Below, piece by piece: positions 1,910 through 58,021 of a stretch of 64,000 nucleotides of DNA. Within the stretch, counting starts at the first letter, position 1. The number at the start of each line of letters is the position of its first letter. A program made the translations under genes and the position numbers. This DNA is from Emiliania huxleyi CCMP1516. Taxonomy: Eukaryota. Under the pieces are notes generated by a model. It was not told where the DNA came from and did no database searches. It worked only from the letters and a program-made list of their open reading frames with translations. The stretch lies in contig NW_005201183.1 in assembly GCF_000372725.1 (NCBI RefSeq), positions 5,972 to 69,971 of the forward strand, written 5' to 3'.

Positions 1910-4257
1910 TCACTGCGGCCATTCGAAGAACTTCTGGAGCGCGGAGTTGACGATGGACTTTCCGTTACCATCGTGCGTGCCCTTCTCCGACGCCCTCCAG
2001 AAGTTGCACCTGCTGAGCCCCGACGCAGTGCCGTCGCCGGCCCGCCCCGGAGCCTTGAACAGGCCAGGGCGTGTGTGAGGGAGCTTTCGCATCTCCTGGA
2101 TGCCCAACGCGCGGAACTCGTTGATGAAGTCAGGGAAGGTGCGCTTGATGAAGGCTGCAACCGTTCCGATTCCTGCGTCCTCCCCCTTAGCGATCTTCAG
2201 GAGCTTCACGAACTCGTAGCGGTACGTAGTGCCGAGCTTCCGCTCCAGTTCCTTGGTAGACATAGCGCACGCCTCTGTCACCCACTTCGGGCACTTAAGG
2301 CCCCCCTCCGCCCCCGCCGCCCCGGCGTTCTCCTTGTCGGCGTCAGGCGGGACCAGCAGCGACGCGCTCTCGGCCTGCGCCCCCGCTGCCTGCGTCGCGC
2401 CCACCAGCAGCAACGTGTCCTCGGCCGCCTCAGGCGACAGGTCGTCGTCGAGCGCCTTCTCCACGGCGTCGGCGGCAACCTCCGCCGCCTCGGCCGCCTC
2501 GTGGAGCCACGCCCTCCGGATCGCGCGCTGGATGCGGACGGCGGCCGCCCGGCGTGCCTTCGTGCGCTGCATGGCGAGCTTCCGCACGGCGGTCGCGCAG
2601 CGCACGTTCGACTGGATCGAGACGATCGCGGCCATGGCAGAGGCGAAGGAGGCGCGAGGAGCCGACGCGCGCCACGCCGCCTGCACGCGCGTGGCGGCTG
2701 CCGCATCGAGAGCAAGCGCACGCCGAAGGGCCTGGCCGCGAAACACCGCCTGAAGACGGCGCGAGCAGCGCTGGCGACGCAGCTCCGAAGCCGCGGCGGC
2801 GCGGCGCACCGCCGCCTGCACACGCACTGCGGCGAGGGGCTGTGCCGCCTCGAGCTGCCGCTCGAGACACTGCACCTTGGCGAGCGCGGCCTCGTGCTGC
2901 TGCATCTCCGCCGAAACCTCCTCGCGGATGCGCCGCTCGTCGCCTGATAAATTAATCAAAGAATAATCAATTAATTGATTAATCATTTAATTACTCGTGG
3001 ATGCGCCGCTCGTCGCCAAGTCTCTCCGCCTCGACCTGCTGCAGCCGCTCCCGCAGCACCTTGAGCTCCGACTGCAGCGCCTGCTCTCTCGCGAGCTGCT
3101 CCGCCCTCGCTCGCTCCTCGTCGGCCAGGCGCGCCGCCTCCTCGGCAAAGAGCCGCTCGCCCCCCGGCTGGCGCGCCACCCGCGGCTTGGAGACGATCGT
3201 CCGCGCGCGCGAGACGGTGTAGAGCGTCGAGAGCGTCTCGACCGCATTCGGCTCGGCCGGCGAGGCGCAGGCGAGCATGAGCGTCTGGGTGGCGCCTGTC
3301 AAAACTCAATCTTTCTTAATGAAGAATGGAGAGGCGGCGGCGGTGGCGGGGCACAAGGGTCTGGGCGGCGCCTCCGAGGCGGCCGGCGAGGACCTTGGTG
3401 AGGGAGGAGCCGTTGTACGGCACGTGCGCCGCGCGCGTGCCCAGCGCGTGGAGCACGTGGTTGAGGTGGAAGAGCGACAGGTTGATTTGGATGCCCTCCT
3501 GCCGCACCTTTCCCTCGGTGCCGGCGCGCTTGGGGCGCTCCGAGCCGGCGAGGTCGACAAAGGTGAGCTTGGGCCGGAGCTTGCCGGAGGCGCCCTCGCT
3601 CTTCGGGTCCGCCAGACTCAGCTCCACCGAGAGCACCGCGTGTGACCGCGACGAGTGCTCGTTGAGCCGCGTGCTGCTGGTGGCGCGCGCCGCGGCGCCG
3701 CTGGCGAGCAGCGCCGTCAAGTCGGCGGCGGACTTGAGCTCGCGGCTTGCGGCGGGGAGGCCCCAGCCCGCGCCGTCCCGCTTGAGGTGCAGCCGGGGCA
3801 GCTCGCCGTCCGCCGCCGCCGCCGCCAGCAGGTCGTGCACCGCGTCCTCGTAGATTTGAACAAAGCTCGCGTGCACGGAGGCGCCGGGCGGCAGCCGCTC
3901 AAAGATCTGCTTGACCGACATCTGGATGAGGCCGTCCACGCGGGCGCCCGTGCCCGATCCCATCGTGTGCGTCTTCCCCGAGCCGGTCTGCCCGTACGCG
4001 AGCACCGTCGCGTTGCAGCCCCGCAGCACGTTCGGGAGCAGCGTCGGCGCGATGCACGCGTCATAGACGGACGAGATGCCACCTTCGGGGCCGCCCACGT
4101 GGTCAAAGACGAAGGGAAACGGCGCGCTGTCGAGCACCACCTCGGGCTTCTCCGGCTGCGGCTGGTGCAGGCACTCGGAGCCGCGTGGCTCGTGCGGCAG
4201 CAGCGGCCGCACGACGAGCGCGACCTGGACGTGCTCGGAGCGACGCGTTGACACCAT
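1910..4257 (-). CDS. Kinesin motor protein with coiled coil and IQ-like motifs (3 exons)
   Basis: Motifs GQTGSGKT, NEHSSRSH, DLAGSE and HVPY. GC-AG introns 3296-3371 and 2944-3016 restore the frame (LGG|ATQTLMLACASP; LG|DERRIREE). The start may be further upstream (4473). Confidence 0.85.
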
Positions 4258-4482
4258 CTCGCCATCCGCGTTCGGGCCGCAACTGGGATTCCCCCTGCGC
4301 GGGCGGACGGGGGGAGTGGTTGGACCCGGGCGATGGCACCACGGGGACGAGGAAGAGATGCCTCGCCTCCGCGGGGTGGCCGGAGACCCCATTCGCATTG
4401 TGGTTGGTCCTGCGAGGCCACGGGAGAAGTGACGGCGTTGGCGGTGGCCGCGGGCAAGGGATGGCGCAGTCATCGGGAGAGG

Positions 4483-4515
<33 letters not shown>

Positions 4516-4828
4516 GGCGCCGGCCGCGGCGGCGCGGGGCGCGGGGCACCACACGTCGGCGAGTTTTGGGGCCGTTCAAGCACCTGGAATGGAGGGTAAG
4601 CCCGCTGACCGTGGGGGCGGAGCGCTGTTCTTCTTTTTTCCATCCGCTGTTGAGCGTGAAGATGGTTGGTTGGTCTCTGGGAGGAGGTTTTACAACTCAA
4701 GTCCTCTGGAGAGCATTTTTCCAAAAGGGTATGGCGAGTTCGCCGTCGAAGGGACAGGGACGTGTCCAAAGATAAACGTCACGATCGCCTCACCGATTCG
4801 AGGCGGCGTTGCTGGCTCTGTGCTGGCG

Positions 4829-5808
4829 ATGCACAGGTTGCTCGCTCTACGCTCTCGCTGCCATGAACGGCGATCCCTTCTCGACCGACCCAGTGGTGCA
4901 AGAGGACTACAACCTCTTCCCGATGCGCTGCGACGCAGCCTCATGGCCGTGCACTCAACCCGTCGTTCGAAGCACAGCGCCAGCCCGTGGCGACCAGAGA
5001 TGGACGCTTTTGTGCTATTACGCCATGTTCGCGACAAAATCTCATTACCAAAGGTGGCAGAGCAGTGGCCGTTTCCACCACCTGCAAAAAAGTCGCGTGC
5101 AATTCTGCGTCGATGGCAAGATGTGCTCCGAGGCCTCGCCGGTATCGACGAGCTGATGTGCGGAATGTGCGAGGAGCAAGAAATGAGCGAGACGCAGCTG
5201 AACAGCACCGAGGTAAGCCTGCAGCCGTGGATCGAGGACGCTCTCGTGAAGCTGCACGCGCGAAATACGTGTCGATGAACTCAAACTACACTCCGTGGAC
5301 GATCGAGGAGGACCACCTTCTGTTGCTCTCGTACCAGAGCGGCGCGAAGATCACTGAGATTCGCGTGAGTAGCCGATCCGCCGAAGCAATCAAGCTCCAG
5401 CTACGCCGATTTCAGAACGTCACGCCACGGGTACGCGACGCGCACCACAAGAGCCGCTGCGACCCGGAGGCGCCGTATCAGTACCTGCAGCACGACATAT
5501 GCTCGACCCTCGCTCTACCGATGTGCAGCGGCGGTACACTATTGCATCGTCGTCCCAACGCTGAGTCTCCTTCTCCTGCTGGTGGGCTCTGGCCTGTGCC
5601 TCGAGGCCTGTGCAGTGGCAGTGACCACAATCCATTATCACCCCGCCTCACTCAGCGGAGCGCGGGAAGGCCAGAACCCAGAAGCCACTTGCACTTCCTT
5701 TCGAGTCTTTACTCTTTTCGGACGCGGCTGCGCTGGCCTCGGCAGCTTTTTAGCGGCGGCGAGCTTGTTCTTGGAGAGAGTAACTCAGCCGCTCAATATA
5801 TACAATAA
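4829..5808 (+). pseudogene. Myb/SANT-like repeats split across two frames
   Basis: SPWRPEMDAFVLL...AILRRWQDVL lies in one frame and PWTIEEDHLLL...RSAEAIK in the next. The frames overlap at ATGA 5275-5278. Confidence 0.4.
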
Positions 5809-6359
5809 AAACAGACCTAACCGACAGAACACCTCGTTCATGTTCTCCTCCACGCGCAGAGTGGTAATTTCTCGCAGCTGCGAGACAAGTTTTCTCGGAG
5901 CGACAGCCTCAAAGACAAAAGGGTGGATGGGTGGGGGACGATTGCGGGCGAGCGCCAGCGCGCCCCAGGAACGGTGGGGTGCCCTCGACCGCGCGTCCGA
6001 GTCACTTGGGCGGATGAGCGAGCGGCACATGGCCCGACAAAGAGAAATCGGAGTCTGGCGACGAGATCGATAAAAGAAGTGCAGCGTTTCCTCTGAGGTG
6101 CCTCAGAGGTGCGCCACACCTCTGAAGGTGTCTTTCAGAGGTGTACTTCAGGAGCAGAGCTGACGTCAGTCTGTGCGCGCTCCCTCTCTCCTCGTCGAAA
6201 CTCCATTTTCTCGCATCTTGGCTCTCTCAGCCCCAGCTTTGAGCGCCGCGGGCCGCGGGCCGGGCGCGGGGCGCGACACTATAGCTTGTGCCGAGACCCA
6301 CCATGCAAAAGGATCAGCCGAACGCAGCGCGCTAACGCGCTGCTGGCCGCCCATCCGGC

Positions 6360-6586
6360 TCAGCGGTGCAGCGAGCACCGGCGGTTGGCGCAGCGCGAAG
6401 CCGGCGCCGGCTTGCCCCAGCCGCAGTTACGGCACTCGTATGGCATCTCGTCGTCCTCCCAGTCTTCGTCGGTTGTGTCGGAGGACGAGATCCCCTCCTC
6501 GGTCTCCTCGGTGTAGTCGGAGGACGAGTAGTCGTCGTCGTCGTCCTCCTCCTCGCCGTCGTCCTCGCTGTCGTCCTCGCCCTCGC

Positions 6587-6623
<37 letters not shown>

Positions 6624-7123
6624 CTCGCCTCCCTCCTCGTCGACCAGCGCCGCACCGTCCTCATCGCCGTCTGCGCCCTCCTCGGCTCTACCTTCATCGT
6701 CTTGCGCCTCAGATGGCCCCGCCTGCTGCAGAGAACAAACGTGAGTACACGGTGCGCGGATTGTGGCAACGCGCACGGCGTCGCACCTCGGCCCCGGAAG
6801 CCGAGGCAAGCTCCTGGAAGCGCGCGCGCGTCAGCCGCGCCTCCTCTTTTGCCTCCTCATACTGTCGCTTGGTCTTGCGCTCCTTGTCCTCCGCATCGGC
6901 CTGCAGCACTGCTGCAGCATACCGTGCGGCAGACTCAGCGTCAGCGGTCCCGGCGGCGGTCGCCGCCGACGCGGCGGCGGTCGCCGACGCCGCGGCGGTG
7001 GTCGCCGCCGACGCGGCGGCGGCCGACGCCGCGTCAGCGGCGACCTTCTCTCTGTCGGCGGTGTCCTTCTCCGCCCGGATGCGTTCAATTCTCCTGCTCC
7101 AAGTTGAAGACGACGGGTGCCAT
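6360..7123 (-). CDS. Coiled-coil/acidic protein with C-terminal Cys zinc ribbon (apparent +1 frameshift near 7088)
   Basis: MAPVVFNLEQE/IERIRAEK joins if one A is removed. GT-AG intron at ~6725-6786. Asp/Glu tract followed by YECRNCG...RCANRRC. Confidence 0.55.
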
Positions 7124-10819: not shown

Positions 10820-13150
10820 ATGCCAGCGGCAAGCGGTCCGGACGCCGTCGCGAAGGTCCGGCGTAAGGCCGACGCGCCCATCACTGGCAAACACCGCACT
10901 GCGGCCACTAAGGGCAAACGCCGCAACGCCGAGTCTTCCACTGACGGCAAGCGCTGCAAGGCTGATGCGGGCTGCCGGGAACTCGCGGCTGGCGCTGCCG
11001 CCTCGTCTGCCGCTGCCTCCGCCTCGCCTGCCGCTGCCTCCGCCAGCTTTTCGTCCCTGCCCCTGCTGGCGACACTGCGGCTCGCCCTTTCCGAGTCGTT
11101 TCCGTTTGAGCAGCTGACTCCGGTGCAGCAGGCCACCATTCCGGCCGCCCTCGCCGGCCGCGACGTCATCGCGCGCGCGAGGACCGGGTCTGGTAAGACG
11201 CTCGCCTTTTTGCTGCCCGCGATCCAGCGGGTCGCGGCGGATCCAGACCAGCCTGGCGTGCGGGCTGTCCTGGTCTCCCCCACGCGCGAGCTAGCCACCC
11301 AGACCGGCGCCGTGTGCGAGGCGCTGCTCTCCCACATGCCCCGCGTGTCGTGCCGCTGCGCCGTGGGCGGGACGAGCGTGCACGGCGACGTCGCCGCCTT
11401 GCGCGGCTCACTCTGCCCCGGCATACTCGTCGGCACGCCTGGCCGGCTCAACGACCTGCTGTCGGGCGGGCACGGCGCGGCGTCCGCCTTCGGCCGCGTC
11501 GCCTGCCTCGTCCTCGACGAGGCGGACCAGCTCCTCGCCCTCGGCTTCCGCCGGCCGGTCGAGGCGGTCGTTGCCTCGCTCCGGAGGGCTGCCCACCCGG
11601 CGGCGCCTCCGTGGCAGACACTCCTCTTCTCAGCCACCCTGCGCGGAGACGTGCGCTCGCTCGCCGCCGCCGCGCGTCGCGGGTGCGCGCCGCCGACGGC
11701 GGCGGAGGACGACGACTTGCTCGTCGCCGACGCCATCGGAGCGGAAGCGCCGACCAACGCGGCGGTCGAGCAGGCCGTGACGGTCTCCCCGCCGGCGGCC
11801 CTCGCGGCGGAGCTGGTGCGGACCCTGCTGGCGCTGCGCTCGGACCCGGCCGCAAAGGTGATTGTCTACGCCGGCGCCGCGCGCCTCGTCTCCTTCCTCG
11901 CCGCGCTCTGCCGCCGGATGGGGCTCGGCGGCTCCGCGCCGCTCGAGCTGCACGCGCGGCTGCCTCACGCGGAGCGCGCGTCGGCGGACCGCCTTTCCTC
12001 GCGGCGGGAGGGGGGGGGGGGAGAGCAGCGTCTCTTCACACCGGGGTGTGCGCGTGAGCAGGTGGACGCCGCCTTCCGCGCGAGCGAGGGCGGGCGGCTC
12101 TTCCTAGAAGCACTTGGAGCGCTTGGAGTGCAGTGAAGCAGACTCCGTCTTCTTGTACCCCAACCCACACTCGAGAGGACACGGACTCAGCTGTATTCGA
12201 CTGTGTTCAGCCGTGTTCAGTCGTCTTCGCCTCCCTCGTAGTCACACGGTGCTCTGGATTCACTGCACAGCACCGTCTCCCCGCCCTGAGGCTGAGAGGA
12301 GAGAGGAGAGAAGGGAGAGGAGGGTGTGCTGATCTCGGCCGAGCTCGCGGTGATGGCGTATTCACCTCGCAGGCTCCTCTTCTCCTCGGACGTGTCTGCG
12401 CGAGGGCTCGACTACCTAGAAGCGGGGAACGTGTTCATGTATTCCAACTAGCGCCCGAGAGGACACGTATTCCGCCGCATTCAGCCGTATTCCGCTGTAT
12501 TCACTGTCTTCCTCCCCGTTGTCTTCACGCGGTGCTCTGAAGACGCTGCACAATGCCGTCTCCCCGCTGCACAATGCCGTCTCCCCGCCCTCATGCCGGC
12601 GTATGCACCACCACGCAGGCTTGACTACCACGACGTGACTGCCGTCGTCCAGCTCGGCGCCCCGCCCGACCGAGCGACGTACATCCACCGCGTGGGCCGC
12701 ACCGGACGCGCCGGCGCTGCGGGAGTCGGCCATCTGCTGCTGGCCGAGAGCGAGGCGTCCTTCCTGACTTGCTTGGGCGGGCTGCCGCTGACGCGAGCCC
12801 CGCCGCTGCCGCCCGCCGCCGCCGCGCTCCTCGAGCCGCGGCTGCGCGCGGCGCGCGGCGCGCTCCCCGCGAGCCTCGCCCAGGAGGCGTACGCCTCGCT
12901 GCTGGGGGTCTGCTCGGAGCCCGGCTGCTTGCGCCGGCTGCGCTGGAGCAAGGAGGACGCCGTGCGCCACACGAACGCCTTCGCCGCCGGCGTGCTCGGC
13001 CTCGCCACGCCGCCGCCGCTCGACGCCGCGGCGCTCCAGCGGATGGGCCTCGCCGGCGTGCGCGGCGTCGCGGCGAAGACAACGTCGCTCTCGTGCTTCT
13101 CGGTGGCGGGTAACGCGCCGCGCCACAAGGGGCGCTGCGACCTCGGCTGA
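10820..13150 (+). CDS. DEAD-box RNA helicase (Mss116/DDX18-like), 4 exons
   Basis: Q motif, ARTGSGKT, PTRELA, TPGRL, DEAD, SAT, ARGLD and HRVGRTGRAG. GC-AG introns 11984-12061, 12097-12372 and 12406-12618. Confidence 0.9.
12022..12061 (+). mobile_element. Degenerate copy of the 39-nt intron-forming core
   Basis: AGCAGCGTCTCTTCACAC...GCGTGAGCAG at the 3' end of helicase intron 1. Confidence 0.55.
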
Positions 13151-24346: not shown

Positions 24347-25723
24347 ATGCTTGCGCTCCGAGAAGCAGCCGGCGCGGCGCTGCTCCTGCAGCTCGCTCGG
24401 CTCCTCATCGTCGACTCGGCCCGCCGCGCCTCTCTTCCTCCCGTCACCGCAGTTGGTCTGCTATGCTACTCTTTTGCGGCTGCGGCGGCCGCGCTCGGCG
24501 CCCTTCCTCCCGCGAGCGCTGCGACGCTGGAGCCATCAGCCTTGGCAGCGTCGCCCGCACGGCTGCTCGCCTCGCTGCTCCTCTACCGCTCGCTCGCGGG
24601 CCTCGGCTGCCACCTCTGGCTCTGGCTCGCCGCGTGCGAGCGGCTCGAGCCCGCTCTCGGCTCGCGCCGGCTGCTGGTTGTTTTGCTGCTGTGCACTGGC
24701 GGCGCCGCCGCGCTGGCCGCCGCGACCGTGCCGCCCGTGCAGCGCCGCTACGCCTCCTCCCTCGCGCCCGCCACGCTCTTCGCCCTGCTCCAGCTCTGGG
24801 CGCAGTCGTCGCCAGAGTCGACCGTCACGCTGGTCAGTGTGCGGCTGCAGACTCGCAGGCTGCCGTGGGCTCTCCTCGCGGCGGTGGCGATCCTGGACGG
24901 GGTGACGGCCGCCCTATCGCCGCTCCTCGGCATCGGCGCCGCCGCCATCTACCACGCCCTCGTCGGCCTTCCGCACAACGCAGTGCTGCCTCCTCCGCCG
25001 CCGCCGACTCCGTCGCTGCGCCGGCAGGTCGCCGGCGAGGGAGACACGACCACGGAGCACGCTTCCGGCGCCGCCGCCGCCGCCGGCGGCGGCGGCGGCG
25101 GCGCGAATGCGGCCGGCGTCGCGCCGGACGAGGCCGAGGGTGGCGGTGGGACCCGCTCCGGGCGGGTCGCCCAGGCGGCGCTCATTGCAGTGGGGGTGGC
25201 GCTGCTGCTCGGCGAGGGCGGCGGCGGCAGCGGCGCCGCCGCGCGGCTGCAGGCGCAGTGCGGCGTGCTGAGCTCGCTGGCGGATTTGACCGAGCCGCTC
25301 ACGGCGCAGCTGGTCGCCAACTTCACCGCCCTCCGCCTCGACGCCGCCGCGGAGCCGGAGGGCGGGGAGCGGGCGTTCGAGTGGCTCGCCGCGCGCTGGA
25401 GGCTGCTCCCTCACGGCAGGGCGGCGGCGGCATACGCCGCGCTCGCGGAGGGGGGCGAGGAGGCGGCGGAGCGGAGGCAGGCGCTCTATGTCGAGCAGCT
25501 CGACCGCGAGGTCTCCGCCCCCCCCTCTCCCTCTCTCGCACACACACACACATCACAGACTCACACACGCACACAAAGCACCCTCCCACTTGCCACCCTC
25601 CCACCCGCCCCCCGGCCACTCGCCCACGCACTGATCCCCTCCCACCCGCCTACCCAGGTCTCCGCCCTCGTCGCGGAAGTCCTCCCCACGCTCGACACCA
25701 ACTCGGCGCAGGAGGACGACGAG
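24347..25723 (+). CDS. Der1/derlin-like (rhomboid superfamily) membrane protein, 5' exons; may continue into the next feature
   Basis: LPPVT..., LQLWAQSSPESTVTLVSVRLQTRRLPWALL...LLGIGAAAIYH is a Der1 pattern. Intron 25511-25657. 3' structure uncertain. Confidence 0.6.
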
Positions 25724-26081: not shown

Positions 26082-28593
26082 ATGGAGGCGTTGCGCAAGC
26101 TGCTCGACGGAACGGGCGGGCGCGGGGCTGCGCGGGCGCTAGGGGAGGAGGACGAGGACGAGGAGGGCGAGGGGGGGGGCGAGGGGACCGAGGCGGGGGC
26201 GGCGGAGGAGGAGGGCGGCGCGGCGGGCGGGGCGGAGGAGCCGACCCTGTCCTCACTGCTCAACGCGACCCTCTGGTCGTTTGACTTGTCTGCCGAGAGC
26301 AACTCGAGCGGCACCGCAAAAGGAGTTCCGCTGCCGGAGGTCGGCCGCCCGCCTCCCGGAGCGCTGCCGGAGCTGGTCTCGTAGGCGTCGCGGCGGAGCT
26401 GCTCTCGGAGCTCGACCTCGACGATCTAGATCTGACGGCCGAGTCGCGACCGCAGTTCGAGAGGGCGGTGGCGGCGCACGTGGCGGAGCGCGAGGCGGCG
26501 CGGGCCAGCGCGAGGTACGAGTCGCTCGCCGCGGTGGCGGCGCTCCTCGGTGGAGGGGAGGGAGGGGAGGGAGGTCAGGGAGGTGATGGAGGGTAGGGAG
26601 TTCCGGGCGGGCGAGGCGCCCCGGAGCGCGCGCGCTGGCCGCTGCTCGACGCGGCGGTCTCGCGCGCGCTGGGCCGCCTCCTCCTGCCCCCAAACGCGTC
26701 GGACGCCTCTGCGCTCGCCGCGCTGCGATCCGGACTCCACAACCTGAGCGAAAGGGCCGCCGGCGAGCCGGGCGGAGGCGGAGGGGCTCCGCGCGAGGGG
26801 CTGCTGCGCGACGCGCTCCTCCGCGAGGCGACGGCCGCGGCGCGCGCGGCGGTGCGGCGGCAGTGGCGCAGGGAGCTCGCGCTGAGCCGGCTGCAGAAGC
26901 TGATGGTTCCGCCGGAAGAGGAGGAGGGGGGGGCTCTGCCGCCGCCGGAGGGAGAGGGCGAGGAGGAGGGGGGCGAGGAGGGGGGCGAGGAGGGGGGCGA
27001 GGCGGGAGCGCCAGCCACATGGGAAGGGGACGGGCCTCGCTTGGTGGGCGACGTGTACGGCGGCTTCGAGGAGCAGGCGCGCGTGAGAGGGGCGGCGCTA
27101 GGCGGGAGATACGGGGAGATACGGGGAGATATGGGCGGCGCTAGGCAAGAGACGTGTGCGGACCTCTGACATGTGCCATGTCCACCCGGCGTGCCAGGCG
27201 CGCGAGATGAGCGGCGTCGAGCTGACGCTGGACGTGCTTCGAATGGCCCAGGTCGAGCGGGACGCTCGGCCGCACCTCGGCCGCACCTCGGCCGCACCTC
27301 GGCTGCCTCTCGGCTGCCTCTCGGCTGCCTCTCGGCTGCACCTCGGCTGCACCTCGGCTGCCTCTCGGCTGCCTCTCGGCTGCCTCTCGGCTGCCTCTCG
27401 GCTGCACCTCGGCTGCACCTCGGCTGCCCCTCGGCCGCACCTCGGCCGCACCTCGGCCGCACCTCGGCTGCACCTCGGCCGCACCTCGGCGGCACCTCGG
27501 CTGCACCTCGGCGGCACCTCGGCTATATCTCGTCAGGTGGAGGAGGACGCGCTCTCCAAGAAGGCGCGCGCTGCGCTCGACGCGGCGGTCAGCGCCTTCC
27601 GCTCCTCGCTCGCGCCCGAGGCTGCCGCGCAAGACGGCGGCGGGCGGGCGGAGGTGGGGCGTGGGGAGGTGCGCTTGGCGGGCGGCGGGGCGGGCGAGGA
27701 GGCCTCCCTCGCCGGCTGGCGATCCGACATGTGGGCGGGCGCTTGGGCGGGGCTTCGGGCGAGCGAGCTGATTGCCGTCGGCCTCGCCTCATCGCGGGGC
27801 GAGGACGAGCCTGACGACGCCAACGGCGCCGCGTCCGCGAGCGCCGCCGCAGAATTGCGAGTCGTCGGCGCAGGCGACGGGTCCGATTTTGCGTTGGTTG
27901 TCGGCCCCCCCCCCCCCCCCCCTCCCCTCCTCCAAACCCCCTCCTCCCTCTCGCCGCCTCACCGCCGCGCCGCGTGGACCGACCGCCCCCCCCGCTGTGT
28001 CCTTCCCCCTCGCGGCAGGTGCTCGCGTCGCTCATCCACGGGGCCGGCGGCCGCGCGCGACTCGCCCTCGTCTGTGGGCGCGGCGACGCGGCGGACGGCG
28101 GCTGCAGGCTGGTCACCGAGGTGCGGCGGAGTGCGGGCGGCGAGGCGAGCGCCTCGTGGGCGGCCGCGCGCCGCAGGATGACGGCGCTCCTCCGCGGCGG
28201 CGAGGGCGGCGGCGAGGGCGGCGGCGGCGGGGTGCACTACCGCCGTGACGCCGACGGGACGGTGCGTTGCGGTTTGCCACGGCTCCTTCCTGTACCCTGT
28301 CGCATCACCCTCTTCCGAGACGTGGTGCGCGCCCCCCCCCCTCTGCTCGTCCGCAGGTGTGGATGTCGCTCGCGGTCGAGGAGGGCGTGCCGATGAGCGA
28401 GCAGTTCCCGGGGGGCGCGTACGGCGCCGGGGCGGCCGCAGACGGCGAGGGCGCGCAGTGGTTCACGTTTTGGCCGTTTGACTCGCAGCAGCAGCAGCCG
28501 ATCTGCGCCTTTCACGGGCCTGGCGGAGAGACCGACTCGGTGGGCAGGCCCGCGGCGGAGGCGGCGGTGCAGCACGTCGCGCTCTCACGGTGA
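26082..28593 (+). CDS. Multi-exon protein of unknown function (possibly the C-terminal part of the Der1-like gene)
   Basis: Codon-biased exons are joined in frame by introns such as 27077-27197, 27252-27536, ~27897-28018 and 28322-28356. Stop at 28593. Confidence 0.55.
27265..27523. repeat. Intronic 11-bp minisatellite (CTCGGCYGCAC / CTCGGCTGCCT)
   Basis: About 23 tandem units inside intron 27252-27536. Confidence 0.9.
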
Positions 28594-34152: not shown

Positions 34153-37100
34153 ATGGCAGCGAGCGGGCAGCCGCGCAAGCTGCAGGAGCAGGTGGCGCAT
34201 GGCGGCCCCGTTCGGTGCGTGCACATCGGCCGCAAGTCCGGCGGCGTGATGGTGACGGGTGGCGACGACAAGAAGGTGAACCTCTGGTCGGTCGGCCGCC
34301 CCAACGCGATCCTGTCCCTCGCGGGCCACACCAGCAGCGTCGAGTCGGTCTCCTTCGACTGTTCGGAGCGGACCGTCGTCGCCGGCTCGGCCGGCGGCAC
34401 TCTGAAGATGTGGGACCTCGAGCACGGCCGCGTGGCGCGCACGCTCACCGGCCACCGCTCGAGCGCCATCACGGTCGAGTGGCATCCGTACGGAGAGTTC
34501 TTCGCGTCGGGCTCGGCAGACACGTACCTCAAGGTGTGGGACATGCGCCAGCGCGCGTGCATCCAGACGTACCGGGGCCACGCCGGCGCCGTGCGCAACC
34601 TCCTCTTCTCTCCCGACGGCCGGTGGGTGGTCTCTGGCTGCGACGGAGGCGAGGTCAGGCTGTGGGACCTGACCGCGGGCAAGCTGCTGACGGAGCTCTG
34701 CACGCACGCGGGCGCCGTGTCCGCTCTCGCGATCCACCCGACCGAGTTCCTTATGGCGACCGCCGCCGCCGACCGCACCGTCCGCCTCTGGGACCTGGAG
34801 ACGTTTTCGCCGGTCGGGGCGGCGCTGCCCGAGCCCGGCGGAGGGTCGCGGCGGGTCGCCTTCACGCCAGACGGGAGCGCGCTGCTCTCGGCGGGCGAGG
34901 AGTCGCTGCGCGGGTGGGGGTGGGAGCCCGCCCGCTGCCATCTCCACTCCGAGACACGCTGGTCGCGGCTGTCCGACTTTTGCATCGTCGGGGGCGGCGG
35001 GGGCGGAGGAGGGGAGCGGGAGGGAGGAGAGGGGGAGGTGCTGGCTGCGGCCCTCCACGAGTGCGTGGTCACCGTGTGGGGAGTCCGCCTCGACGAGCTG
35101 CGCGGGCTCGGCCACCCTCCGCCCGCCGGCGCGGCTCGACTCGAGGGCGGGGGGAGGCGCGAGGGCGCGAGGCACGAGGGCGGAGCCAACCACCTCGCCT
35201 CCGCCTCCTCCCGCCCCGCCTCCGCCTCCTCCCGCCCCGCCTCCGCCTCCTCCCGCCCCGCCTCCGCCTCCTCCCGCCCTGTCCCCGCCGCTCGCAAGGC
35301 GGCCCCCGCTCCCGCCGCCCCTCCCGCCGCCGCTCCCGCCCCTGCCGCTCCCGCCCCTGCCGCATCCGCCCCTGCCGGCCCCGACACTGCTGGCCTTGAC
35401 GAGGGCGACGAGCTGTCGGTGTCCGCCTGCGCGCGTATGCAGATCGCCGGCTGCCGCGCCCAGATCGCCGCCGTCCGGCGCGGAAGGTCCGCCTGCCACG
35501 GCGCTGCAGCTGTCTCTGGCGCCGCCGCCGCCGCCACAGCGGCTTGCTTGAGGCCGGCGGACTTCGCCGCCGCCGACGTCCCCGCCGCCTCTCTGGCGGA
35601 GGGGGGCGGCGCTCGCGAGGCTGGCCGCGGGGGAGGCGGCTGCAGGGCCGCGTGCGCGGAGCAGTCGGAGCCGCTCGCCACCGCAGGAGGACGGCACAAG
35701 TCGGTCGGCACGTCGATGGGAGACTCTCTCTGCGGCGGCCTCGCGCCGGCGGCTTCCTAGACACTTCCTAGACGCCTCCTAGACACCTCCTAGACACCTC
35801 CTAGACACTCCCTCGCCTCCTCCCACGAAGAGTGACGCGCCTCTCGCGCGCGCGCCACCCCGGCGCCGGCCCCCCTACTGACGCACTCCCGCTTCCGCTG
35901 CCGCGCCGAGCGAGAAGCTCCTGTGGTGTGAACAGCGTCTCTCCACACGTACTGCTGTGAACAGGCGACTGCCGCGTCGAGCGAGAACCTCCTGGGGAAT
36001 GCGCAGCTCCCTCCGCCGCGATACCCCGCGACGCGCGCGCGCAAGGCGGCGTCGGCCGCACCGGCGCCCGCGCCCGCGGCGGCTGGCTGTGGCGAGGGCG
36101 GGGCGGCGGGCGGCTGCGGCGGGGCGCGGGTCGGCGAGGCGCGCGGGCTCGAGGAGGCGCGCGGGCTCGAGGAGGCGCGCGGGCTTGACCCGTCCGAGGC
36201 GCGCGGGCTCGACCCGTCCGCATTCCTGCCGCGGGCAGGGGGCGGCCCTGTGCCCCGAGACGAGGAGGCGCTGCTGTCGGCGCTGCTCGCCCCGTCGCCG
36301 CTGCAGGTCTCTTGCCTCTCGGCGCGGCTGACGGCGCTGAGGGCTCTCGGCTGCTACCACGCGGCGGGCGACTTCAAGGCGACGCTGCAGCCTCCTCGGT
36401 TGGGCGGAGGGGGGGGGGGGGGATTGGGCTCCTTCTCTGACCCTTCCTGCGGCCCTTGCCGCCAGGCGATGCTGCAGCACCTCGCGCGGCTGGGGGATGC
36501 GTCCGTCACGGTGGACGTGTTGCGCACGGGCACGTTGCGCCGCGTCCCGCTAGACCTGGAAGGGGCGCTGCTGCTGCTGCCCACGCTCACTCAGCTCCTC
36601 GCCTCCTCCCACGAAGAGTGACGCTTCCTAGACACTTCCTGGACACCTCCTAGACACCTCCTAGACACCTTCTAGACACCTCCTAGACACCTCCTAGACG
36701 CCTCCTAGACACCTCCTAGACACCTCCTAGACACTCCCTCGCCTCCTCCCACGAAGAGTGACGCTTCCTAGACACCTCCTAGACACCTCCTAGACACCTC
36801 CTAGACGCCTCCTAGACACCTCCTAGACACCTCCTAGACACTCCCTCGCCTCCTCCCACGAAAAGTGACGCGCCTCTCGCGCGCGCGCCACCCCGGCGCC
36901 GGCCCCCCTACTGACGCACTCCCGCAACACGTAGGCACGCCGAGGCGTCGCTCGACGCGCTCTCGCTGGTCCTCTCAAGCTTTGGGTCGGTGGTGGCCGC
37001 GGCAAGGTCGGCGGCGACTGGCGGCGTCGGCGTTGATCTGAGCGGCGAGGCGCGCGCGCGCCGGTGCCACGAGTGCTACGACCACTTCGACGCGATCCGA

Positions 37101-44517: not shown

Positions 44518-46818
44518 TCATCTCCGGCAGAGCGCCGCCGCAGGGGCGGTCGGCAGCGCCAGGTGGCTCCGCACAGCATACGCGCTGACTGCGCGCATGA
44601 CTCTATCGTTATGGTCCGCCGCCATGGCTGCTCCTCGGCGCCTCCCGCCGCCGGACGGGTCGGCTTCCGAGCCTGCGCGCCGCTCGACGGCGTCGCGGTT
44701 CGCGCCTGGCGATGCAGGGGTGCTACGTCGGAAGGGAAGGGGCGGAGTGCGGCGGAGGAGGCCCGCACCGCGGCGACGCTCGAGCTCGCGCCGGGCTGCC
44801 GCCTCCTCGCGCGTGCCGGCTGTCCCTCGCGGGAGCCGCGCCTCCGCCGCCTCCGCCGCGCGCGGCGCCTCCTCCGGTGCGCGAGGAAGCTTTGCCGGCG
44901 CCCCTTCTGCAGGGCCCGACCCGGCCGCCGCCGCCGCCGCCTCCCGCCCGCCCTCCGCCCAGCGCTGGAGGGCCGCCTCGGCGGCATCTACCCACGCGGG
45001 CCCGCGACCGCCCTGCTCCGCGCCGCCTCCCGCCACCGCCTCCCCGCCCCACCGGCCGGCCAAGCCCGCCGTGGCGAGCAGCCGGCGAAGCGCCTAAACG
45101 TGTCAGCAAGAGCTCGCGTCTGATGACCTAGGGTTAGGCTTAGGGTTAGGGTGAGGGTTAGGCTTAGGGTTAGGGTTAGGGTTAGGGTTAGGGTTAGGGT
45201 TAGGGTTAGGGTTAGGGTTAGGGTTAGGGTTAGGGTTAGGGTTAGGGTTAGGGTTAGGCTTAGGCTTAGGGTTAGGGTTAGGGTTAGGGTTAGGGTTAGG
45301 GTTAGGGTTAGGGTTAGGGTTAGGGTTAGGGTTAGGCTTAGGGTTAGGGTTAGGGTTAGGGTTAGGGTTAGGGTTAGGGTTAGGCCTAGGGTTAGGGTTA
45401 GGCTTAGGGTTAGGGTTAGGGTTAGCAAGCGCCTAGCAGTTAAAGCAAGAGCTCGCTTCTGAGGCCCACGGCCCACGAGCGACAGCAGCCGGCGAGAGGC
45501 GCCTCGGTCGCTCGGTCGGCGCTAGGCGGGAGATATGGGGAGATATGGGGAGATATGGGGAGATATGAGGCGCCTCGGTCGCTCGGTCGGCGCGTGCTGC
45601 TTCCTCCACCGCCTCGAGGCTGGCCGCCTCGAGCCTCCTCCGCAGCGCGAGCACCTGCAGGGCGGGAGCAGGGTGGGAAGGGCGGGGATGCGGGAGCAGG
45701 GCGGGAAGGGCGGGGATGCGGGAGCAGGGCGGGAGGGGCGGGGATGCGGGGCAGGGCGGGAAGGGCCGCCGGCAAGCGGCGCGAGGCAAACGCGCCTCCG
45801 CGGAAGCCGCGGCGGCGGCGGCCGACGCCTCCTCTGCCGCCTCCTCCGCCGCGCCCGCCCGCCGGAGCAGCGCCGCCTCGTCGACTGCGCCGCAGGCTGC
45901 CGCCGCCGCGCCGCCGGGGCCCGCTCCGGGGGCTCCAGACTCACCGCCGCCGCCGCCGCCGCCGCCTCCCTCGCTCCCGCCCCCGCCAGTGTCGGACGGC
46001 CCATCGCGTCGCTCGAGCGCGGCGGGCAGGAGAGAGCCGCCGCCCGCACGCTCCGGCGCGGTCGACTGCGGCGCGGCCGGCTGCAGCGCCAGGGACTGCA
46101 GCGCCGCCTCGGCACGAAGCGAGCGCGACTCGGCGGCGTCCGCCTGTTCACAGCAGTGGGTGTGAAGAGACGCCGTTCACACCCCTAAACTCTGCGCGAC
46201 TCGGCGGCGTCCGCCCTCGCCGTCGCCTCTGCCGCCGCCGCACGCGCCTCCGCCACCTGCTCCGCCGCCTCCGCCACCGCCTCGGCCGCCGCCTCCGCCC
46301 GCCGCCTCCCCTCGGCCGCCTCCAGCCTCGCCGCCGCCGCCGCCGCCTCCGCCTCCTGCCGCTCCGCCTCCGCCTCGATGCGGCCGCGCCGCGCCTCCGC
46401 CACCCACGCGGCGCAGGCGGCGGCCGAGGCAAGGCCCTGCTGCGCCGCCTCGAAGGGATGGAGGTCCGGGGCCGGGTCGGGGATGCGCATTCCCGAAGCC
46501 CCGCACGGGGCGAAGGAGGCGGAGGCCGAGGCAAAGACGGTGTCGTCGGCGCGCCGCCGGCTGCTCCCCCGCGGAGAGCGGCGTGCCGCGCCCGCCTCGA
46601 GCGCTGCACCGCCCGCCGCTGCAGCCGCAGCTGCCGTCTCGAAGCGCGCCCGCGCCGCCGCCTCTGCCGCCGAGTGCCGGAGGACCGACGCGGCGGCGGC
46701 TTCGAGGCGAGCGCGCGCCTCTACCTGGCACCGCTGGTTCTGACGGTCGCATATGTCGTAGCCATGCGAGGCCGTCGGCGGCGGCAGCGGCGGCGGCGGT
46801 GGAGCTCGTGGCGGTGGT

Positions 46819-46856
<38 letters not shown>

Positions 46857-50603: not shown

Positions 50604-52000
50604 CCTTGAGCGAGACGGGCTCGCAGTTCGAGTCACCGTTCACAGTTGTGGCTGCGAATTGGACTTGGCTAGGTGGGATGCAAAGGCCGACAGGGGAACG
50701 CGATTTTATTTTTCTTTTTGTGGTGTCAAGGGCGCCTAAAAGAAGGCGCCACCGCCCGCGTTTATGTATGCTATGACTCGGCTTTTCAAACGCTGTTGCA
50801 ATGCAACACACACAGGTACAGTTCTTCTCAGTACTTTACCATCTCACTCACGCGCTGCTGCGTCCACAAGTGCCAAATCATCTCGCCGTAAATGAAAAGG
50901 GCAAGTCCTCCTCCTCCTCCCCACCGCCCTCCGTCGCCGGAGCGCGCGCCCCCACCATCAGCCGGCCCAGCTCCGCCTGCCAAGCCCACGCCTCACCCGC
51001 GCCTTCCCTCGCGGGTGCCGTCGCGCCGCGCGCGCCCAACTCTGCTGGCACACGGCACGCGTCGTCATTCAGCCGCGGAGAACAGGCGGTGCTGTGCGCG
51101 AACGCGCGCGATCTCGTACTTTCAAGGCTGGATCCGGCCATTCCAAGGGTATACCTTTGAGAATCCCCAGCGTCCCTCCCTCCTAGTCACAATCTCAATA
51201 TCTCGACTCTCCAACACGAAGTGCTGCGATCGGGGGTGGCCCATTTTTTCCCTTCCCCCTCGGGAGAGGGCCGAAGAGAGGCGCCCGTGGGGACCCCGCA
51301 ATTCCATTCCCCCCTCGGAGGGCCGGACTGAGGCGTCGAGGGCCCCGCTCTTTCCTTCGCATAGTGGCCACTCTTCGGATCGCTGGTCGAGCGACCCGGG
51401 GCGGATGCCCCGCGCGCCTGACCCAGGCGCGAAAACGAATCTGCGAGGCGTGGCCGCTCATGCGGCCCGATGGGGAGGAGCGGGGCGGACTACGGGGATC
51501 GGCTTCTTACACAGCCCTTCCCTGCAGCGAGCCACCTCCAACCCACCCGCGCTAGGTCTCGGGTTTGACGCATGGGGTCACTCCCGCGAAACTCGTGAAC
51601 TAGCCGGGGCAGTCGGAGAAGGGGCAACTCCGTGCACTGACGGTCGGCCGCCAGAAAACACGCCTGCGTGGATCGCGTCACACCAATCCTCTCGCTACCC
51701 AACGCGGCCAAAGGATATGCATAAAGGACAATCCTGGGGGGGGTTGTTTTTTGCTGTGCACGGCGTCTCTTGGAGCCGAGAGAACCTGTCGTCCGGACCG
51801 GCCGTAAACGTGTGCTCTGCGGCTCTGCTCTCTGGCTGCAGCTCGTCCCCCGGGACCTAGTACGGGTCAGCCCCGCGCGACCTCGGGAACTAGCCGGTCC
51901 CCGCGTCCCTTGAGGCTGGCTGCTGCTCCGGTGGTCACGCTGCCCTGGACGCTGGGGAGCGTGGACTCGCCTCGTCGAACGGGCACAGCGGCGCCGCACG

Positions 52001-53014: not shown

Positions 53015-53119
53015 GGTCCCAAGCTGGTGGTCGTTCGGCACAACTATGGTCACTCTGGGAGACGTCCCTAAACCCCAAAAAGCACGATTCTGAAGTTGGG
53101 CCCTCTGACTGCACTCCAA

Positions 53120-55487: not shown

Positions 55488-55700
55488 ATGGCGCTCGTCA
55501 TGTCGGGCGACGACGTGCAGCAGCTGCGGCAGGAGTACGCCTTTTGCAAGGACGAGATGATTTCGAGCAGCGCCGCCGCAAAAGACATCATCGCATTCAC
55601 GGAGCAGACGGCGGAGCCGCTCAGACCCGACTATCCACCGTCTCAGAATGCGTGGATCGGTGGCAAGCGAGGGTCCAAGGGCTCGTGCACGATATGTTGA
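55488..55700 (+). CDS. Heterotrimeric G-protein gamma subunit
   Basis: 70 aa. VQQLRQE..SSSAAAKDIIAFTEQTAEPL..NAW is a GGL pattern. C-terminal CaaX (CTIC). Confidence 0.8.
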   Translation: MALVMSGDDVQQLRQEYAFCKDEMISSSAAAKDIIAFTEQTAEPLRPDYPPSQNAWIGGKRGSKGSCTIC

Positions 55701-55929
55701 TCGGCACGCTTTACATCCTCGCTGTCCTAGAGTGGCCGGGCCAGCCGTCTATGTACTACGAGCGCCTGCAGAGAGAGACCGCCCTGTGAGACTTCTTGCA
55801 TGTTGGGGTATTTATCTGGACAAAAAATGCTTTCCTTCTCCCACCGCGTCACGCGCCGCCGCGCTGCCGACCGGCAGTACTGTAGTGCCAATGGGGCCTA
55901 GCCCTCCGCTCATACAGCATGCCGGCACA

Positions 55930-58021
55930 TCACGGCGCGGCCGCTGCCTCATTCGCCTCTCCTGCCGCCGTCTCCGTCGCCTCTCCGGACGCCTCGTCCA
56001 CGACGGCGCCGCTTCGCAGCAGGTAGAAGGCGCAAGTGCGCTCGCACAGGTCCGCCACGCGTGAGGCGGCGGAGAAGCCGTCGGGCGGCGGCGCGTCGCC
56101 GCAGCCGTCCGCCCACGAGACGGCGCACACCGCGTAGCCGGACGTGTCGACCACGTCGCGGCAAGGCGTGCCGCACACCTCCGCTGCTCGGTCCTCGAGG
56201 CCGGCCTCGACGCGCGCGAGTGCCGCCGCCTGCCGCCTCACGTCCTCCACCGCCGCGCGCACCTTCTCGCTGTTCGGCGCCATCCGCTGCGCCGACTCGA
56301 AGTCTGCGAGGGCCTCGGAGAGGCGGCCTTGCTGCGTGCGCGCGGTGGCGATGCCCTGCTTCGCCTCGTCAAAGTACTCCGAGTTTGCGAGCGCGCCCTG
56401 GTAGAAGAGGTCGATCGCCTCGGCAGGTCTCGACTGGCGAGCGCTCAGCCGGCCGAGGGAGAGGAACGGCCGCGCGTCGGTCGGTGCAGCCGCAGAGGCG
56501 CGTCGGAAGGCGAGCTCCGCCGCGGCCTCGTCGCCGGTCGAGAGGCGCGCCTCGCCCAAGTTGAGCCACGGCAGCGCCTCGGACGGCCGCAGCTCCGCCG
56601 CGTGCTCGTAGGCGTCCGCCTCCTCGCCGAACCGCTCCAGGTCAGCGAGTGCGGCGGCGAGGTTCACCCACGCGTCGAAGTCGCGCGGCACGAGGCGCAA
56701 CGCGGCCTGGTACGCCTGCACCGCCTCGGCCGTGCGGCCCTGCGGAGGGGCGGCGCCGAGCGAGAGGTGGGGAGAGGTGGGGAGAGGTGGGGAGAGGTGG
56801 GGAGAGGTGGGGAAAGGTGGGGAGATACGGGGAGATACGGGGAGATACGGGGAGATATGGGGAGATACGGGGAGATATGGACCTGCGCGCGGAGAGCGAC
56901 GCCGAGCGAGAAGTGGGCGTCCGAGTCGAGCGGCAGCAGCGCCGTCTGCGCCTTGAGCTCCTCCTCCGCCTCTGCAGGCCGGTCGAGGCGCAGCAGCGCG
57001 TCGGCGCGGTTGGCGTGGCAGAGGGAGCAGTGCGGGTTGAGGCGCAGCCCCTGCGCAAACAGCCGGTCCGCCTGCTCGAGCTCGGGGGCAGTCGGCGACG
57101 GGGCGAGCAGCAGCCGGTTGCCACGCTCGTTGAGCCGCCTCACGTGCTCGACTCTGTCTGCGAGCGCGATGAAGCCGCCGAGGACGTACCGGAGGCCGGA
57201 GGAGACAGCGTGGCCCGCATGCCGCACGGCGCCGGGCCGGAAAGTGACCATGCCCTGCTCCATCGGCAGCACCTGTTCACAGCTGGACGTGTGAAGAGAC
57301 GCTGTTCACACCTGACCATGCCCTGCCCCATCGGCAGCACCGCCCGCAGGCTCTCGAAGTACGTCCCTCCCCCCTCGAACGAGGAGGAGGGCGAGAGCGC
57401 CACCGTAAAGGCGAGTAGCGCGTCGTCGATGTGGACGTCGGTCGCGGGGTGCGACTCGTTGTACTTGAGGATGGCGACCGAGTGCGCGCGCAGCTGCGCG
57501 GTCGAAGAGACGTGCGCCGGGAAGAGCTGCGCCAGCGCCGGGTACAGCTTCGTCTCGAGCGCGCCGTTGAACCAGCTCAGCACACCCGGCATCTCCCTCA
57601 CCCAGGCCTTGCCAATGCGGTACTTGCCCGACTTTGTGCTCGGAAGGCCGCCCCCCTCCGCCTCGGCCAGCGCCACCACCTCGTCGCACTCGGCCGCCGA
57701 GAAGAGCGGCGCCTCCGTCACGTAGATGGAGTGCTCCTCCTCGCCGGCGCCCTCGACGATGTCGACCAGCGGGCCGTGGCCGAGCGGGTGGCGGCTCATC
57801 TGGGGCAGAGCCACCTCCGCCGCCGCATCGCCGCAGAAGAAGTGCCGGCACGCCTCGGCAGACTCGCGGTTGTGGTCCACCTCGTTCGCAGAGAGGGCGT
57901 CAGAGAGGGCGGCGTCGGGCGCCTCGGAGCAGCTCGCGCCGCCTGGGTCGACGCAGACGCGCTCGGCAGCCACGGCCGCGGCCAGCAGCGCGACGCCCAT
58001 GACGAGACTGGGATGGCTCAT
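55930..58021 (-). CDS. Secreted 2OG-Fe(II) oxygenase (prolyl/lysyl-hydroxylase-like) + TPR repeats + Cys-rich tail, 3 exons
   Basis: Signal peptide; HIDD...FEGGGTYF...HAG...RYVLGGF; TPRs. Introns 57273-57340 and 56740-56882. Confidence 0.85.
56762..56880. repeat. Intronic 10-bp minisatellite (GGGGAGAGGT then GGGGAGATAY)
   Basis: Directly visible. The GGGGAGATAY unit also occurs at 27104-27135 and 45527-45566. Confidence 0.9.
57273..57311 (-). mobile_element. 39-nt intron-forming core
   Basis: Sense GTGTGAACAGCGTCTCTTCACACGTCCAGCTGTGAACAG, flanked by 29-nt direct repeats 57245-57273 and 57313-57341 (one mismatch). Confidence 0.8.

Follow-up and report, generated by a model that had tools for sequence, protein, structure and literature searches.

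Introns of Emiliania huxleyi that begin with a copy of the next exon: long duplicates, repeated fillers and a candidate route to intron gain

The 64,000-nt stretch of Emiliania huxleyi CCMP1516 DNA analysed here (contig NW_005201183.1, positions 5,972 to 69,971; the window) raises the question of why introns should begin with the same bases as the exon that follows them. A sequence-only reading of the window listed thirteen such introns and proposed, as a general rule, that introns are continually gained by a staggered cut, duplication and filler at exonic G/GC or G/GT sites (slash, splice junction), which would also explain the abundance of GC donors. The origin of new spliceosomal introns is a long-standing question, as for most of them the source cannot be traced. 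All thirteen intervals have GC/GT...AG ends when read in transcript orientation, and the match counts given for 2944-3016, 3296-3371, 46144-46214 and 57273-57340 are correct once shared upstream bases are included. The thirteen introns and one predicted mirror-type case are listed below, with evidence other than the sequence itself in brackets.

2944..3016, minus strand: intron in a kinesin gene, 73 nt, GC-AG (RNA contig); 2994-3016 duplicates exon 2921-2943 (22/23 plus a shared G), and 2944-2993 is AT-rich filler.
3296..3371, minus strand: intron in the kinesin motor domain, 76 nt, GC-AG (RNA contig, homologs); 12 of the first 13 nt agree with the next exon, and an AG is shared.
11984..12061, plus strand: intron in a DEAD-box helicase gene, 78 nt, GC-AG (homologs); a duplicate and a piece of family A filler, both decayed.
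12097..12372, plus strand: intron in the DEAD-box helicase gene, 276 nt, GC-AG (homologs); weak short duplicate (6/7).
12406..12618, plus strand: intron in the DEAD-box helicase gene, 213 nt, GC-AG (homologs); 10/11 duplicate.
25511..25657, plus strand: predicted intron, 147 nt, GT-AG (both ends called by the gene finder); 10/10 duplicate plus a shared AG, filler C/A-rich.
27077..27197, plus strand: predicted intron, 121 nt, GC-AG; 7-nt duplicate plus a shared CAG.
27252..27536, plus strand: predicted intron, 285 nt, GT-AG; decayed duplicate (11/14).
35749..35964, plus strand: predicted intron in a katanin p80-like gene, 216 nt, GC-AG (family A, allele L006); a later insertion of ~140 nt (about 35752-35890) splits the duplicate, and allele L006 lacks the insertion and has a 26-nt duplicate match.
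36379..36465, plus strand: predicted intron, 87 nt, GC-AG; 12/13 duplicate plus a shared AG.
45094..45573, minus strand: predicted intron with telomere-like repeats, 480 nt, GC-AG; just 4 nt agree with the next exon start, and the donor is straddled by a 71-nt unit with a 24-nt real duplication.
46144..46214, minus strand: predicted intron, 71 nt, GC-AG; duplicate 46194-46214 (21/21 plus G), family A filler 46144-46193.
57273..57340, minus strand: predicted intron, 68 nt, GT-AG (family A); duplicate 57313-57340 (27/28 plus G), and a 40-nt family A filler (57273-57312) with an internal inverted repeat and the acceptor at its end.
56740..56882, minus strand: predicted mirror-type intron, its 3′ end resembling the upstream exon end (gene finder and inspection by eye).

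With the donor fixed and 124 unrelated predicted exon starts as the comparison, empirical p is at most 0.016 for 11 of the 13 introns, the other two giving 0.048 (45094-45573) and 0.16 (35749-35964); the set was picked by hand, and these values are no unbiased test. About 12 further probable window introns called by the gene finder of this analysis show no clear duplicate by eye, and in a first window-wide duplicate scan without a filter the signal was swamped by tandem repeats. RNA and DNA contigs were compared over window positions 2501-9200, which hold two of the thirteen introns, neither of family A, and RNA agrees with the predicted junctions at both. At intron 3296-3371 an RNA contig leaves out precisely 76 nt (3290 to 3367), and the loose end of this contig at 2994 is the upstream exon, a 73-nt skip of intron 2944-3016. 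Homologous proteins are ungapped over the three DEAD-helicase junctions and the kinesin junction at 3296. Where RNA, homologs or Pfam domains back a site, mis-mapping of its junction is rejected.

The fillers between duplicate and acceptor recur. One filler (family B) is common to 12097-12372, 12406-12618 and the metagenome locus L051, a 10-mer minisatellite fills 27077-27197 and 45094-45573 in opposite orientations, and the 11-mer tandem filler of 27252-27536 is found again in L022, L023 and L027. For family A, a search pattern that includes neither acceptor nor duplicate gives 126 matches in 120 metagenome loci (numbered with L), and near-identical intron sequence sits at many unrelated loci; the same pattern has no match in viral contigs and prokaryote genomes. 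Among the 95 distinct copies with tail and flank that form the set for duplicate tests, 74 carry a duplicate of the next exon above the 99th percentile of shuffled pairs (0.8% of shuffles), with shifted controls at the same loci scoring in 1/90 and 2/91 cases, and 21 have no significant duplicate.

The anatomy of the 74 duplicate-bearing introns is uniform in size and variable in its parts. All but two (72/74) are 65-75 nt long, duplicate length varies (mostly 16-36 nt, median ~25 nt), and identity over duplicate positions 2-18 is 0.88-0.97. In 63/74 the intron and the following exon open with the same dinucleotide, and there is no consensus downstream of the donor. The filler tail ends in AG in 92 of the 95 copies and the 5′ end of the filler is ragged, with a longer duplicate accompanied by a shorter linker (rho -0.88, n=36, sum 26-36). 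Both filler ends are a 9-nt direct repeat, and the inverted repeat is internal, with no terminal inverted repeats.

Family A copies mostly lie in genes and in the sense direction. A codon model seeded on window genes places 55 of 65 copies in coding sense, and 51 of the 65 are both in sense and open after intron removal, an open frame alone being weak evidence as several frames stay open in this GC-rich DNA. Removal restores conserved proteins exactly where Pfam domains span the site: of 15 pairs, three have domain coordinates that run on across the insert (L049, L098, L119) and one is consistent with this (L073), the others having no match on at least one side. In L008, L012, L068 and L108 the filler is inverted and another AG is used, and the L012 filler matches a neighbouring intron ~30 nt away, locally inverted. 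Of 80 repeat-flanked copies, 59 were given splice sites that fit the predicted coding strand by an orientation-free script; it misjudged strand or offset at several loci, and is used for these four inverted cases alone.

The same geometry of duplicate plus filler occurs with fillers unrelated to family A. In 124 non-family introns predicted by the gene finder of this analysis, which is crude (acceptor correct in 29/35, both ends in 17/35), a duplicate scores in 33, with a control rate of 2.5%. Matches at positions 3-12 number 4.39, where permutations matched for phase and dinucleotides give 3.23 +/- 0.13, and the following exons start with G(C/T/A) in 87/124 cases, versus 30% after exonic AG. 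A mirror rule, in which the intron end resembles the upstream exon end, is not significant in this set (2.92 vs 2.77 +/- 0.12). Chance is ruled out as the origin of the duplicates by the shuffled, shifted and phase-matched controls. The observation that intron starts repeat the next exon start is thus confirmed, and aligning the two against shuffles gives the excess expected by the earlier reading independently outside the window, in metagenome copies as well as in non-family predicted introns. The duplicate pattern is widespread; with 33 of 124 non-family introns scoring, the claim that it is universal goes further than the data.

The earlier reading had arranged the duplicates from perfect to decayed, like an age series, and this holds on two counts: filler decay correlates with duplicate decay (rho 0.38, n=118), and non-family duplicates are found mainly in short introns (23/53), with 7/33 in medium and 3/38 in long ones. 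Alleles differ in such units at L085/L033, L029/L117, window/L006 and L076/L010. In the first of these a 71-nt unit present in L085 is missing from L033, where assembly collapse is unlikely as five substitutions and a 4-nt gap mark a separate haplotype. For the claim of continual gain, this polymorphic unit bears out ongoing activity and not gain at new intronless sites, since it is stacked on an existing acceptor. Single-unit sites yielded no allele that lacks the intron.

Rather than anonymous repair DNA, the fillers form repeated families with bases traceable to other introns. Variants in linker and tail are co-inherited in 14 linked pairs, against 3.6 in permutations (maximum 14 in 2000), and in L010/L035 and in L092, L119/L015 the linker matches the exon-derived copy of the other gene. 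Exon starts are also more similar within the 14 linked pairs (2.71 vs 1.64 bases, p 0.0025), pairs that are few and mutually non-independent, and same-tail pairs taken alone give p 0.11. Homology-guided choice of targets over the whole of family A was set aside, family-wide sharing of exon starts being weak (p 0.02-0.36, sampling with replacement having inflated the control). Because fillers carry bases apparently inherited from other introns, the data suggest templated copying.

Insertion as duplication plus filler at exonic sites is supported at G/G(C/T/A), a wider range than the G/GC and G/GT first proposed. Exonic G/GC, G/GT and G/GA occur at 63:15:22 and donors at 36:23:6, with G/GG almost unused. 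The supply of G/GC targets (63%) upholds part of the proposed account of GC donors; supply alone does not suffice, as the two ratios differ, which indicates that spliceosome preference shapes the donor ratio. The available part of PMC4028052 gives 56-65% GC donors in E. huxleyi and ascribes them to overall GC content. An insert-and-duplicate process likely helps explain this majority and offers a mutational account of it: GC donors would prevail since GC-rich exons offer G/GC more often than any other usable site, and the spliceosome is tolerant of it.

Taken together, the reading of the window as a record of intron gain is partly supported, and it is moderately probable that introns here are made by copy-and-duplicate insertion, with the duplicate giving the donor and a copied filler giving the acceptor. 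An exon stretch of 15-35 bases would be duplicated around a short filler, for which the 3′ half of an existing intron, or else some other short repeat, likely served as template. The event could start with two offset nicks or with a template switch during replication or repair, and joining may proceed through microhomology of a few bases. Selection would then keep inserts that start G/G(C/T/A), end in AG and reach ~65 nt, and later the duplicate would decay and the intron lengthen through further insertions. Under pure selection, non-genic copies with arbitrary ends are expected to be abundant, and few are seen, although metagenome assembly may hide such copies. A bolder version, possible if tentative, derives most E. 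huxleyi introns from a single process, still active and guided by junctions. It would place a copy of one intron's 3′ half at a cryptic G/G(C/T) site in another gene, with a built-in length of ~70 nt and possibly by way of a splicing intermediate and a reverse transcriptase. If so, the GC-donor majority and the repeat-filled introns would be its fossil record, and exact intron loss would have a matching route in recombination between the paired repeats.

Non-LTR retroposition by target-primed reverse transcription leaves a long variable target duplication, a fixed 3′ end and a truncated 5′ end with microhomology. Family A resembles non-LTR/SINE products in its long, variable duplication, fixed 3′ end and ragged 5′ end, and differs in lacking a poly(A) or simple tail, in a 40-50-nt cargo that ends at the acceptor and in having some inverted copies. 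An RNA-templated origin is a rival reading, in which a nick-primed reverse transcriptase (target-primed as in LINE/SINE, or by template jumping) would copy 40-50 bases of an excised intron or intron-retaining transcript from the AG end, a second nick 15-35 bases off making the duplication. The AG-fixed tail, the ragged 5′ end, the long variable duplication, the sense bias, the likeness of exon starts in linked pairs and the common intron retention in E. huxleyi described in the available part of PMC4028052 speak for it. It is nevertheless doubtful, given the inverted fillers and the locally inverted copy, the missing poly(A) tail, an Rfam scan of six loci with no match and a scan of 30 window ORFs in which no reverse transcriptase appeared. 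The filler is also not unusually stable as RNA (folding z -1.3 to +0.75, no more than shuffles), and a structured-RNA role for it was dropped on this ground.

Renewal of existing introns, in which a new duplicate-plus-filler unit stacks at an old junction and recombination between repeats deletes the old unit, or slippage or conversion re-copies the exon start, is unlikely. Stacked or tandem units do occur (L001, L007, L015, L079, L085, L090, L117), L029 has perfect tandem copies where its allele L117 has one decayed copy, and intron 3296-3371 is present at ~95% identity in contigs of three other runs, not on record as RNA. Renewal leaves origin unexplained, however, as the duplicate must pre-exist, and most family A copies are single units within conserved domains. 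Two proteins of relatives (P0122, P0127) continue through each of the three helicase intron sites; this argues weakly against renewal, as their gene-calling method is undocumented (both lose similarity at another helicase site, as in an unspliced reading). A classical MITE-type introner mobilised by a DNA transposase is highly improbable: the filler is repeated, its hairpin is found in a longer non-intronic repeat (L005, L045) and PMC12130899 (supplement file 8) gives one E. huxleyi family the score 'co-opt 5' carry 3'', but a variable duplication in place of a fixed 3-9 nt largely refutes this reading, and the ragged 5′ end, the absence of terminal inverted repeats and the identical geometry with unrelated fillers also oppose it.

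Compared with known systems, copy-and-duplicate insertion shares with introners the repeated intron-forming inserts and the division of splice sites, where the insert brings one and the target duplication provides the other. Introner families of E. huxleyi are on record: the table of PMC9860276 (Gozashti et al. 2022) lists five, two of them of 70 nt (19 and 158 copies), and that of PMC12130899 (2025) lists fam24, with 5 copies, '10bp terminal direct repeats' and the score 'co-opt 5' carry 3''. By description alone, family A is likely one of the catalogued families. Introner target duplications in these papers are generally 3-9 bp, with '?', 'N', 2 bp, 4 bp and NA for E. huxleyi, whereas the duplicate here is ~25 nt, a third of the intron, adjoins an inherited linker that is ragged, and is seen again beside unrelated fillers; no published description of the long duplication was found. 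In Daphnia pulex, the available part of PMC4202315 describes intron gain by staggered double-strand break repair, with 33 repeats of 4-12 bp in a set of 90 new introns whose sources are mostly unknown. As described there, a direct repeat of the adjacent exon lies at the far intron end, and later nested insertions with their own repeats and decay with age are likewise shared; the E. huxleyi repeats are 2-3 times longer and nearly always place the exon start at the donor side, and their fillers group into families. Tandem genomic duplication and intron transposition or reverse-transcription template switching, as outlined in the available part of the review PMC3443670, also let a duplicated exon give a splice site or an existing intron give splicing signals. 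The product here is a hybrid unlike either alone, with an exon copy as the 5′ third and an intron copy as the 3′ half, and each young intron includes ~40-50 nt of foreign filler bearing the acceptor, whereas tandem genomic duplication would build the entire intron from exon sequence and take both splice sites from the duplicate.

Both halves of these young introns are traceable: the neighbouring exon accounts for the 5′ third, and a different intron or a repeat for the 3′ half. With two internal clocks and parent-daughter links in each intron, the process becomes datable and mappable with public strain genomes. In practical terms, repeats of this length can confuse read alignment, assembly and gene prediction; two exons of the window helicase are missing from the public gene model P0121.

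The pairing of a duplicate, in which the 5′ end of an intron copies the start of the next exon, with a filler, the remaining 3′ part carrying the acceptor, is a real, strong and widespread pattern. The window is eukaryotic with a GC content of 60-75%, and the top match of its DEAD-box helicase is an Emiliania huxleyi CCMP1516 model (C-terminus 76/76 identical). All 13 introns cited in the sequence-only reading have GC/GT...AG ends, and the identities reported for them were confirmed in the sequence. Excess similarity over controls is also found in this hand-picked set, with 11 of the 13 at p ≤ 0.016 against 124 unrelated predicted exon starts, and introns 45094-45573 and 35749-35964 at p 0.048 and 0.16, respectively. 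In the RNA comparison, which covers window positions 2501-9200, one contig has an exact 76-nt skip at intron 3296-3371 and a loose end at 2994 corresponding to the upstream exon of intron 2944-3016; contigs from three other runs include intron 3296-3371. Homolog alignments are ungapped at three helicase junctions and at the 3296 junction. About a dozen more likely window introns have no clear duplicate. At 11984-12618, the public E. huxleyi helicase model (P0121) omits two short exons between the GC-AG introns, both of which homologs keep.

A filler of ~40 nt with an internal inverted repeat (hairpin), ending in the AG acceptor and here called family A, is common to introns 46144, 57273 and 35749, with a decayed form in 11984. 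A search pattern of 23 letters from mid-filler, free of acceptor and duplicate, matched 121 stretches in metagenome contigs, of which 120 loci (L001-L120; 68% GC) were kept from five assemblies, two overlapping ones giving most; L006 matches the window at 97-99%. From 126 matches, 95 copies remained after removal of 11 lacking the 3′ tail and 20 that were redundant or too close to a contig end. In 74/95 copies the duplicate exceeds the 99th percentile for shuffled pairs, compared with 0.8% of controls and with 1/90 and 2/91 shifted same-locus controls. The tail ends in AG in 92/95 and is followed by GC in 49, GT in 32, GA in 7 and other bases in 7. In L004, L020 and L024 the hairpin loop runs in the opposite orientation to the acceptor tail, and a flipped class comprises 8/126 matches, some within a longer repeat. 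The hairpin, flanked on either side by sequence resembling the tail, is also seen inside a longer non-intronic tandem repeat with units of ~175-180 nt (L005:2285-2963, L030, L045, L088, L102, L093, L055), a possible source of the filler.

Of the 74 duplicate-bearing copies, 72 have a length of 65-75 nt, and the median duplicate is about 25 nt. The exon-start dinucleotide equals the donor dinucleotide in 63/74, G precedes the donor in 58 of the 65 introns with a G(C/T/A) donor, and sequence past the donor merely mirrors the exon. The linker, the ragged bases 5′ of the hairpin, is longer where the duplicate is shorter (rho -0.88, n=36). Placement is on the sense strand in 55/65 according to a codon model seeded from two window genes, and recognisable motifs reappear once the insert is removed. 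In a Pfam test of 15 pairs, coordinates over the insert are 205|207 (L049), 74|76 (L098) and 260|261 (L119) and are consistent in L073, the other 11 having no hit on one or both sides.

Copies alike 5′ of the hairpin are also alike in tail variants (14 pairs vs 3.6; maximum 14 in 2000 permutations), and these linked pairs, few and mutually non-independent, share 2.71 vs 1.64 exon-start bases (p 0.0025); across the whole family such sharing is weak. A linker that matches the exon-derived duplicate of the other intron is seen in L010/L035 and in L092, L119/L015. Four copies are opposite-strand introns with the filler inverted and a different AG used, and the inverted filler of L012 matches a neighbouring intron ~30 nt off. 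We take these observations to mean that fillers are copied from a template and joined through short homology at the junctions, which is easier to envisage for a DNA template. An RNA template would likewise suit the constant AG terminus and the uneven 5′ terminus.

The rule had been proposed for introns generally, and a simple gene finder built without any knowledge of duplicates extends it in part beyond family A. The finder is crude, as it recovers the acceptor in 29/35 family A introns and both ends in only 17/35. Its 316 predicted introns were reduced to 197 past coding filters, 187 distinct, 153 non-family and finally 124 in loci. Scores of at least 6, 8 and 10 are reached by 33/124, 23/124 and 16/124, against 2.5%, 0.44% and 0.06% of controls. 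Similarity over matched shuffles likewise holds for predicted introns, a search-free comparison of positions 3-12 giving 4.39/10 matches vs 3.23 ± 0.13 (highest 3.84 in 2000) under permutations matched by phase and dinucleotide, and 2.7-3.15 with an in-frame shifted exon. The exon starts are GC in 47, GT in 33 and GA in 7 (87/124), compared with 30% for the bases that follow exonic AG; eukaryotes in general prefer G at exon starts, which may account for part of this excess. In the predicted introns, the mirror comparison, of the intron 3′ end with the end of the upstream exon, gave no significant excess. At the predicted intron at window 56740-56882 (minus strand) and in L016 and L116, the acceptor instead comes from the duplication, which is of the mirror type or spans the junction. 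Duplicates are found mainly in short introns (23/53 at ≤80 nt, 7/33 at 81-130 nt, 3/38 longer), and fillers include AT-rich sequence, 10- and 11-mer minisatellites and other families, 25/46 matching another intron in the sample. Decay of duplicate and filler is correlated (rho 0.38, n=118; fixed windows may contribute), in agreement with the suggested series from perfect to decayed.

The explanation of GC donors by duplication stands for their origin and not for their tolerance by the spliceosome. Exonic sites beside predicted introns number 2971 G|GC, 714 G|GT, 1031 G|GA and 1297 G|GG, and family A donors are GC, GT and GA in 36, 23 and 6 of 65. GT is therefore used ~2.3x above supply and GA ~2.4x below, and by our own estimate from these counts supply yields a GC majority only if the spliceosome takes GC at roughly 0.4x the GT rate. 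The family A ratio is near that of 241 curated E. huxleyi junctions (56% GC, 40% GT, 4% GA) in the relevant passages of PMC4028052, which ascribe the donor shift to genome GC content and give retained-intron reads for 89% of 535 introns.

Alleles differ by insertions. A 71-nt unit in L085, a 32-nt perfect duplicate plus AT-rich filler placed at a pre-existing acceptor, is absent from L033 (flanks 543 matches, 5 mismatches). Two introns have unequal counts of duplicate-plus-filler units between L029 and L117, a ~140-nt insertion within window intron 35749 is lacking in L006, and L010 lacks 82 nt that are inserted in L076 together with a duplication of 10 nt. Therefore, insertion with duplication is active and extends beyond new introns. 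This bears out the activity behind the proposed continual gain, but the L085 unit lies at an existing acceptor, and a perfect duplicate need not mark a new position. We infer gain at intronless sites, at which two relatives' proteins (P0122, P0127), reading through three helicase sites, hint. Window 32364-32505 holds a 71-nt near-perfect, filler-free tandem duplication equal in size to young introns.

For E. huxleyi, the relevant part of PMC9860276 lists at least five introner families, four with a '?' and one with an 'N' for target duplication; for introners in general, it puts the usual length at 3-9 bp. PMC12130899 describes at least three E. huxleyi families. One of them has terminal direct repeats of 10 bp and a duplication of 2 bp, co-opts its donor and carries its acceptor; it is probably family A. 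Daphnia repeats span 4-12 bp in the pertinent section of PMC4202315. No long duplication in E. huxleyi was found described in the mostly open-access literature covered, which includes parts of PMC11282704, PMC11782384, PMC3443670 and PMC6157073. Compared with introner and break-repair intron gain, the present introns differ in their long donor-side duplication, traceable fillers and narrow birth size.

Within an intron, window 45129-45425 carries ~50 telomere-like 6-mer repeats, and an L029 intron has a similar end. In the katanin p80-like gene, two introns share an 11-mer repeat plus unique tail, at 36594-36934 (plus strand) and 35752-35890, containing a branch-point-like motif. Upstream of this gene, ~1 kb (33105-34107) is swapped for a short unrelated stretch in L006. 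Long reading frames in the window include:

13828-15735, minus strand, ankyrin-repeat reading frame
58586-60685, minus strand, ankyrin-repeat reading frame
62042-63613, minus strand, ankyrin-repeat reading frame
47687-50632, minus strand, 982-codon open frame combining PF13383 (methyltransferase domain) with PF01793 (glycolipid mannosyltransferase domain)

The ankyrin-repeat frames at 58586-60685 and 62042-63613 appear within a local duplication. Repeats at 4700-6300 and 7200-9200, present in DNA runs at hundreds to thousands of times the kinesin gene depth, are probably mobile elements.
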